From the NCBI RefSeq assembly GCF_003334385.1, contig NZ_QOWN01000199.1: a stretch of 335 bases of DNA; one strand, written 5' to 3'. Position numbers and translations under genes: made by a program. Source of the DNA: Escherichia coli (GTDB taxonomy: Bacteria; Pseudomonadota; Gammaproteobacteria; Enterobacterales; Enterobacteriaceae). This document shows, in pieces, positions 1 to 335 of this stretch. The stretch's first letter is position 1; each line of letters opens with the position of its first letter. Under the pieces are notes generated by a model, which made no database searches, was not told the DNA's origin, and saw only the letters and a list, made by a program, of their open reading frames with translations.

Positions 1-335
1 ACCACCTGCTCAATCGTACAACTGAAATCACTGTACCTGGCGTTATCTGTGACGCTCCACTCCCGGCACACCACCCTCACCGTCCGGTTATGTTTCGGTG
101 GTCGCCACAAAAAGGCACGGTAACCACCATGCCACGATAAAAATTCATCCAGCCAGCGCCGGGTTGGTTCATCCGTCACCCGGAACACCGCCTGAAACGT
201 CTTCAGTCTGGCATTAAGTCCCGTCGGTCGGCGCTGTTCATAACCGTCACCAAACCGAACCCTCACCACCGACGGTTTCTCACTCACCTGCATCCCTTCA
301 CGCGGGACCAGATGCAGCGTTTTTATCTCAGCCAC
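1..335 (-). CDS. M: Lambda-like phage minor tail protein M (tail-tip assembly protein, gpM homologue). 3' end truncated by the window edge at position 1, with a stop expected a few nt beyond. Start probably GTG at 333-335 or just upstream of the window.
   Basis: The reverse-complement frame beginning at plus-strand 335 is open for 111 consecutive codons, while the other two minus frames stop within 13 nt and the plus frames stop at 23-25, 121-123 and 136-138. The translation aligns along its whole length with lambda gpM as I recall it (MKTFRWKVKPGMDVASVPSVRKVRFGDGYSQRAPAGLNANLKTY...HGGWKSFLWTPPYEWRQIKVTCAKW...EFEQVVN), with about 40-45% identity by eye and one small indel. Shared motifs are GM.V..PSV..VRFGDGY.QR.P.GLNA.LKT, FL..HGG...FLW.PP, C..WS and FS...EQV. 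The plus strand is C-rich, so the coding strand is G/purine-rich, as is typical of coding sequence. Confidence 0.93.
   Translation of the reverse strand, partial: MAEIKTLHLVPREGMQVSEKPSVVRVRFGDGYEQRRPTGLNARLKTFQAVFRVTDEPTRRWLDEFLSWHGGYRAFLWRPPKHNRTVRVVCREWSVTDNARYSDFSCTIEQV
323..335 (-). CDS. Extreme 3' terminus (last 2-4 codons plus stop) of the upstream tail gene, presumably the tape-measure protein (lambda H equivalent). Frame is ambiguous: the stop is either TAA at plus 323-325 or TGA at plus 328-330.
   Basis: Inference only. The gpM homology begins at codon 4 of the open frame, and lambda's ATG position is occupied by ATA here, so M probably starts at the GTG at 333-335. Both alternative minus-strand frames terminate immediately (g-TGG-CTG-AGA-TAA and gt-GGC-TGA), which is what a tightly packed upstream gene ending here would look like. 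In lambda, as I recall, the H stop overlaps the M start (ATGA). Too short to verify by composition or homology. Confidence 0.25.

Follow-up and report, generated by a model that had tools for sequence, protein, structure and literature searches.

A hairpin at the 5' end of tail gene M in a lambda-type prophage of Escherichia coli is very probably incidental to the coding sequence

The window analyzed here, a 335-nt stretch of Escherichia coli DNA, carries on its minus strand an uninterrupted 111-codon reading frame (VAEIKTLHLVPREGMQVSEKPSVVRVRFGDGY...), which corresponds to the 5' part of a phage tail gene (Table 1). The window was matched at 100% by the E. coli EC2 prophage (CDS WP_000807940.1), at 81-100% by ~1,180 further E. 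coli records, and at 90-99% by 91 phage records, mainly those of Stx-converting phages. The EC2 record (L001) gives the gene as a CDS of 342 nt under the annotation 'phage tail protein'; in phage records the annotation is 'tail tip assembly protein M'. A tblastn comparison of the window protein with lambda M (NC_001416) gave 45.5% identity over residues 4-113 (E 5e-23). The protein also matched PHROG 14, 'minor tail protein' (E 3.4e-36), and its GDGY, HGG, and W.PP motifs align with those of its homologues. The gene order at the EC2 locus is T, H (266-3508), M (3501-3842), L, K (a C40 peptidase), I, and J, and an identical order is found in phage vB_EcoS-569R3. Protein homology and synteny, with the tape-measure gene H before it and L-K-I-J after it, identify the window gene as one of the lambda gpM type. 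Lambda gpM makes up the hexameric distal tail ring (PMC10721106). A Shine-Dalgarno element, GGAGG (M -13..-9), lies 8 nt upstream of the GTG start of M, beyond the window edge.

Table 1. Features of the 335-nt window; M nt positions are counted from the first letter of the M start codon
Feature	Window position	Strand	Description
Gene M, 5' part (nt 1-335 of 342)	1..335	minus	lambda-type distal/minor tail protein; GTG start 335-333
H/M overlap, 8 nt, GTGGCTGA	328..335	minus	M start GTG 335-333, H (tape measure) stop TGA 330-328; CDS coordinates in L001 and L002
T5 (plus) / A5 (mRNA) tract	320..324		within codons Ile4-Lys5-Thr6 (ATA AAA ACG)
Inverted-repeat arm	311..317		plus GATGCAG; mRNA CUGCAUC, M nt +19..+25; codons Leu7-His8-Leu9
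Inverted-repeat other arm	288..294		plus CTGCATC; mRNA GAUGCAG, M nt +42..+48; codons Gly14-Met15-Gln16
Minimum-energy mRNA hairpin (M nt +17..+55)	281..319	minus	15 pairs, one unpaired G on each side, 7-nt loop GCGUGAA (window 303..297)
Pro11-Arg12-Glu13-Gly14 codons (CCG CGT GAA GGG)	294..305	minus	Pro CC / Gly GG form apical hairpin pairs

An earlier note on this DNA had drawn attention to a perfect 7-bp inverted repeat whose arms are 16 nt apart, with five T's on the plus strand 2 nt past the 3' arm. Both the exact complementarity of the arms and the T tract were confirmed in the sequence, as was the location of the repeat just inside M, after the GTG start, which overlaps with the stop of H; in minus-strand numbering, the repeat covers M nt +19..+48. 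The caution, voiced in the same note, that a 7-bp stem could be due to chance was borne out as well. The window contains seven perfect inverted repeats of 7-8 bp, among them this one, and of 2000 shuffled versions of the window with dinucleotides preserved, 21% had one or more perfect 7-bp repeats with a spacer of 3-20 nt (mean 0.29 per shuffle). Taken alone, the 7-bp repeat is therefore at the level expected by chance.

The mRNA structure at this position was understated by the earlier note: the actual minimum-energy fold is a longer hairpin, in a register different from that of the 7-bp repeat. When folded in a 56-nt context, the hairpin had an energy of -19.3 kcal/mol (z -2.27, 5 of 200 dinucleotide shuffles as good). 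The exact 39-nt hairpin, the boundaries of which were picked after seeing the fold, had an energy of -18.2 kcal/mol (z -3.53, 0 of 200 shuffles as good). The same hairpin was retained in 135-nt and 335-nt folds. Since 34% of shuffled windows hold a 45-nt stretch at -19.3 kcal/mol or lower, a hairpin of this stability is unremarkable. Throughout the tail operon (7.3 kb, 57% G+C), 68 of 2430 45-nt windows (2.8%), located at 21 distinct places, fold at least as well, which corresponds to approximately one per 350 nt. The most stable 45-nt fold of the window itself lies elsewhere, at M nt +142..+186 (window 194..150, minus strand; L001 ~3643-3687; -21.3 kcal/mol, CCGGGUGACGGAUGAACCAACCCGG core). 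A 60-nt segment overlapping this other fold exceeds its own synonymous recodings (z -2.2, p 0.03). A scan of L001 positions 3300-3900 against Rfam 15, with E values up to 10, revealed no match at the +17..+55 hairpin, and two weak, irrelevant matches elsewhere.

The stability of the hairpin was also compared with that of synonymous sequences. Codons 4-23 were recoded 2000 times, with codons drawn from operon usage, and the best local fold of each recoding was scored. The recodings averaged -15.2 ± 3.2 kcal/mol, compared to -19.3 kcal/mol observed (z -1.31), and 10% of them were as good or better (p 0.10); stability beyond that provided by peptide and codon usage was thus not found for the hairpin in this test. 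Among 90 other 60-nt segments of the operon, 14 beat their own recodings by a larger margin. We conclude that the encoded peptide accounts for most of the hairpin stability. The region codes for Thr-Leu-His-Leu-Val-Pro-Arg-Glu-Gly-Met-Gln-Val-Ser in a prophage tail operon of 57-64% G+C. A Pro (CCN) codon with a Gly (GGN) codon four codons away provides a built-in stem, which the flanking codons happen to lengthen in the present lineage.

Homologous loci were then compared for conservation and covariation of the hairpin arms. At 80 IMG/VR loci (94-99% protein identity), the hairpin was invariant except for a singleton, T>A at +20; these closest viral loci are uninformative on covariation because the hairpin is practically invariant there. 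A genomic-contig scan for intermediate relatives returned nearly exclusively distant M genes (50% identity or less) and one at 66%, while the intermediate lineages B, B', C, and D were obtained from two further viral-contig scans. The resulting sister set comprised lineages B (VDEIKTLHWCPREGMQVT), B' (VTEIKTLHLAPREGMQVT), C (VPEPEVFNWIPREGMETT), D (VKTFHWAPREGMQSS), and E (VANTEEFHWLPEDGMKT), as well as lambda and cdtI, some of them taken from database records. For 14 distinct 5' ends of homologues, an alignment consistent with the codons was prepared. Neither the 7-bp stem nor the minimum-energy stem exceeded column shuffles in paired cells or covariation (184/500, 230/500; 179/500, 307/500; 14 ends). 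The only pairs invariant in 14 of 14 ends were two C-G pairs between Pro CC and Gly GG (columns 43/53 and 44/52), and the PREGM motif is conserved at the protein level.

Judged by sequence comparison, the homologue most telling against a conserved structure is that of lineage B' (L196). The peptide that it encodes at this position, TLHLAPREGMQVT, is nearly identical to the one encoded here, TLHLVPREGMQVS. The nucleotide changes are mostly synonymous (CTG>CTT, CAT>CAC, GGG>GGA, GTG>GTA, and others), and three of the seven stem pairs are lost without compensation. The first 75 nt of L196 M fold at only -13.9 kcal/mol, into another shape. Lineage B (L083) has a different stem, CCCTTCAC/GTGAAGGG; lineage C has a short ATCCCC/GGGGAT stem at the hairpin position; in lineage D the stem has moved downstream; and nothing comparable to the hairpin is present in lineage E or lambda. 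In several sister lineages, too, some part of +17..+60 forms a stable hairpin, in registers other than the present one. The T5 tract is replaced by ATT AAG ACC in lineage B and by CCT GAA GTT in lineage C, and is also absent from lineage E. Identity between lineages in M +1..+60 (0.73-0.90) was not above that in the neighboring blocks. The block best conserved between lineages is formed by the last 30 nt of H, the Shine-Dalgarno element included.

A family-wide fold profile was calculated for 77 M genes, none of them more than 85% identical to another, aligned on the GDGY motif. The start region was open, and the mean excess folding had a shallow trough (-1.2 to -1.7 kcal/mol) at ~M +7..+66. 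The end of H shows an equal or deeper trough, as do three or four further positions in M. We conclude that the M family has no special structural signal just after the start. In the same 77 H/M junctions, the mean trough was deepest (-1.9 ± 0.4 kcal/mol) in the 3' end of H, some 60 to 10 nt before M begins.

The earlier note had suggested that a stem-loop at this position could modulate coupled initiation at M. The -30..+30 region, when compared with its shuffles, folded less well than they did (z +1.27). In the 135-nt fold, both the Shine-Dalgarno element (-13..-9) and the GTG were outside the hairpin and unpaired. With hairpin stability within the recoding range (p 0.10) and with no covariation of the arms across homologues, an outcome that the earlier note itself had named as counting against its proposal, the suggestion is not supported. 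A larger structure joining the Shine-Dalgarno element and start codon to the hairpin was also considered and rejected (135-nt fold, z -0.85, both elements outside).

In coupling by RNA unfolding, as described in a review, a structure hides the downstream ribosome-binding site or start and is opened by upstream translation, as is the case for f1 genes VII/IX and the MS2 coat and lysis genes (PMC12548453). Like such elements, the M hairpin lies where the stop and start of two phage genes that are translated together overlap (GTGGCTGA), but it differs from them in being wholly downstream of the start (+17..+55), with the Shine-Dalgarno element and GTG unpaired. A ribosome terminating at the H stop would reach only the basal pairs of the hairpin. 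The same review describes a library screen in which the efficiency of coupling was negatively correlated with structure close behind the upstream stop codon (PMC12548453). The available text of the gpM structural papers (PMC10721106) and of the coupling review (PMC12548453) makes no mention of a regulatory hairpin in M.

The alternative to be weighed here is that of a lineage-specific mRNA hairpin which tunes M translation. Lying just past the footprint of a ribosome that ends at the H stop or initiates at the GTG, such a hairpin could slow or position ribosomes, and so set the H:M ratio or aid recognition of the weak GTG. The hairpin does begin at +17, immediately past the 8-nt overlap, and it is a fairly stable one (-19.3 kcal/mol, z -2.27), but this stability is within the synonymous recoding range (p 0.10), and equally stable hairpins occur in the operon approximately every 350 nt. 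The initiation region upstream of it is open, and the reported negative correlation between post-stop structure and coupling efficiency (PMC12548453) would fit an influence on M; yet covariation is absent, and L196 destroys the hairpin by uncompensated changes while encoding a near-identical peptide. The -17..+60 segment has no common polymorphism in the closest lineage, but identity between lineages at M +1..+60 is no higher than in the neighboring blocks. We consider this alternative unlikely. In view of the reported correlation, a tuning role for the hairpin is conceivable, but nothing here points to selection for such a role.

A second analogy is provided by hairpins located ~14 nt downstream of a weak start, which were reportedly found by Kozak in 1990 to enhance recognition of that start by eukaryotic scanning ribosomes. 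The M gene is similar in having a non-AUG start (GTG) and a stable hairpin beginning ~14-17 nt downstream. It is unlike the Kozak-type case in that its hairpin lacks the conservation that would suggest selection. To our knowledge, start enhancement by a downstream hairpin depends on 40S scanning, and is not established for bacterial initiation led by a Shine-Dalgarno element.

Among 65 distinct close relatives (93-100% identity), the longest run without common polymorphism is M -17..+60 (77 nt; L001 3484-3560; window part 335..276), and the Shine-Dalgarno element, the start, and the entire hairpin all fall within it. With 94 polymorphic sites placed at random, the P value for this block is ~0.002, but this control takes no account of linkage or mosaic recombination. 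Between lineages, the block is not more conserved. The polymorphism-free block is probably genealogical in origin. For this one lineage only, the hairpin together with the -17..+60 block could be a selected element that tunes restart at the weak GTG of M by ribosomes finishing H and thereby fixes the H:M ratio for tail-tip assembly, with sister lineages using other hairpins at the same place; we find this very improbable.

The same junction could be envisaged as a site acting at the DNA level, i.e., a palindrome serving for protein binding or recombination at the boundary of the H and M modules. The H/M junction is the least polymorphic stretch of the closest lineage, and the mosaicism of lambdoid tail modules, with L alleles diverging sharply after M, would fit a recombination site in this part of the operon. 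The half-sites, however, are just 7 bp long, 16 bp apart, and at chance level; they are not conserved in sister lineages and have no repeated copy elsewhere in the window. There is hardly any likelihood, in our opinion, that the repeat is such a site.

On the plus strand, the repeat had been noted to loosely resemble a weak intrinsic terminator of antisense transcription, with the stem at 288-317 followed by TTTTT at 320-324. Like a Rho-independent terminator, the plus strand does have a perfect stem (7 bp) with five T's 2 nt after it, but the 16-nt spacer exceeds the usual 3-8 nt loop of such terminators, and the fold is weak and needs an internal loop. The plus-strand fold has an energy of -11.5 kcal/mol (z -1.44, 18 of 200 shuffles as good) with a large, interrupted loop, and a consensus terminator scan reported no terminator there on the plus strand. 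The TTTTT is followed by ATCTC, which makes a minimal U-rich tract in this lineage only; the tract is part of the Ile-Lys-Thr coding sequence and has been lost in sister lineages, and the arms are not co-conserved. A promoter-like site was not found within the 335-nt window. Termination of antisense transcription at this repeat is thus extremely unlikely, and this part of the earlier note was not upheld. A reading of AUAAAAAC as a slippery frameshift site, considered by eye only, was also rejected: it contains five A's and no X XXY YYZ heptamer, and in the alternative frame there is no ORF, however short.

Two further terminator-like sites were observed in the tail operon. A terminator scan revealed one on the sense strand within M, at window 133..104 (minus strand; M nt +203..+232), where GGCATGGTGGTTACCGTGCC is followed by TTTTTGTGGC (8 pairs, 4-nt loop). 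The segment encodes WHGGYRAFLW; the stem is broken by synonymous changes in L196, with the peptide unchanged, and is absent from lineages B to E and from lambda. This site is probably coincidental. The other, a strong terminator-like hairpin at L001 6043-6081 (CAGGCACCC-TCCG-GGGTGCCTG then TTGTTTTTTGGG, about -23 kcal/mol), is located in an A+T-rich, unannotated 250-nt gap between I (ends at 5872) and J (starts at 6122).

Several of the records examined have peculiarities of their own. In E. coli SCU-171 (L083, NZ_CP054363.1 12571-13502), the gene 200 nt downstream of the lineage-B M is annotated as porin OmpC and is not L, which suggests that the tail module is truncated or rearranged. In phage phi467 (L085, LN997803.1), the M frame agrees with its homologues only as far as ...IRAF, and the annotated CDS, at 372 nt, is longer and runs into L. 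This record looks like it carries a frameshift in M. M genes were also found on short contigs (L092, L093, L096, L098, and L125) of assemblies labelled Clostridiales, Collinsella, Lacrimispora, and Chryseobacterium. Their identity to the query is at the level of lambda M (45%), with 27% for the Chryseobacterium record, and these contigs probably represent enterobacterial phage DNA that entered the assemblies by contamination or mis-binning.

The inverted repeat and the surrounding mRNA hairpin are, in our assessment, very probably an incidental result of the coding sequence. They are like incidental structure in G+C-rich coding sequence in that their stability is typical of the operon and mostly explained by the peptide, and in that their register is not conserved. 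They differ from ordinary incidental structure solely by proximity to a start codon and by the polymorphism-poor block in one lineage. If formed on late mRNA, the hairpin would simply be unwound by translating ribosomes, and it would serve no function of its own, be it in coupling the translation of H and M, in termination, or as a DNA element. The identity of the gene, the anatomy of the junction, the statistics, and the lack of co-conservation come directly from the data, and we infer from the absence of any signal of selection that the hairpin has no function.

The outcome removes one candidate regulatory element, and in itself matters little. Were the hairpin to tune M translation after all, this lambdoid tail operon would offer a modest case of translational coupling tuned by structure. 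With the hairpin taken as incidental, the locus illustrates how pairs of Pro and Gly codons, such as those of PREGM, make stable-looking hairpins in G+C-rich phage genes, and how such hairpins can pass a dinucleotide-shuffle test yet fail a synonymous-recoding test.
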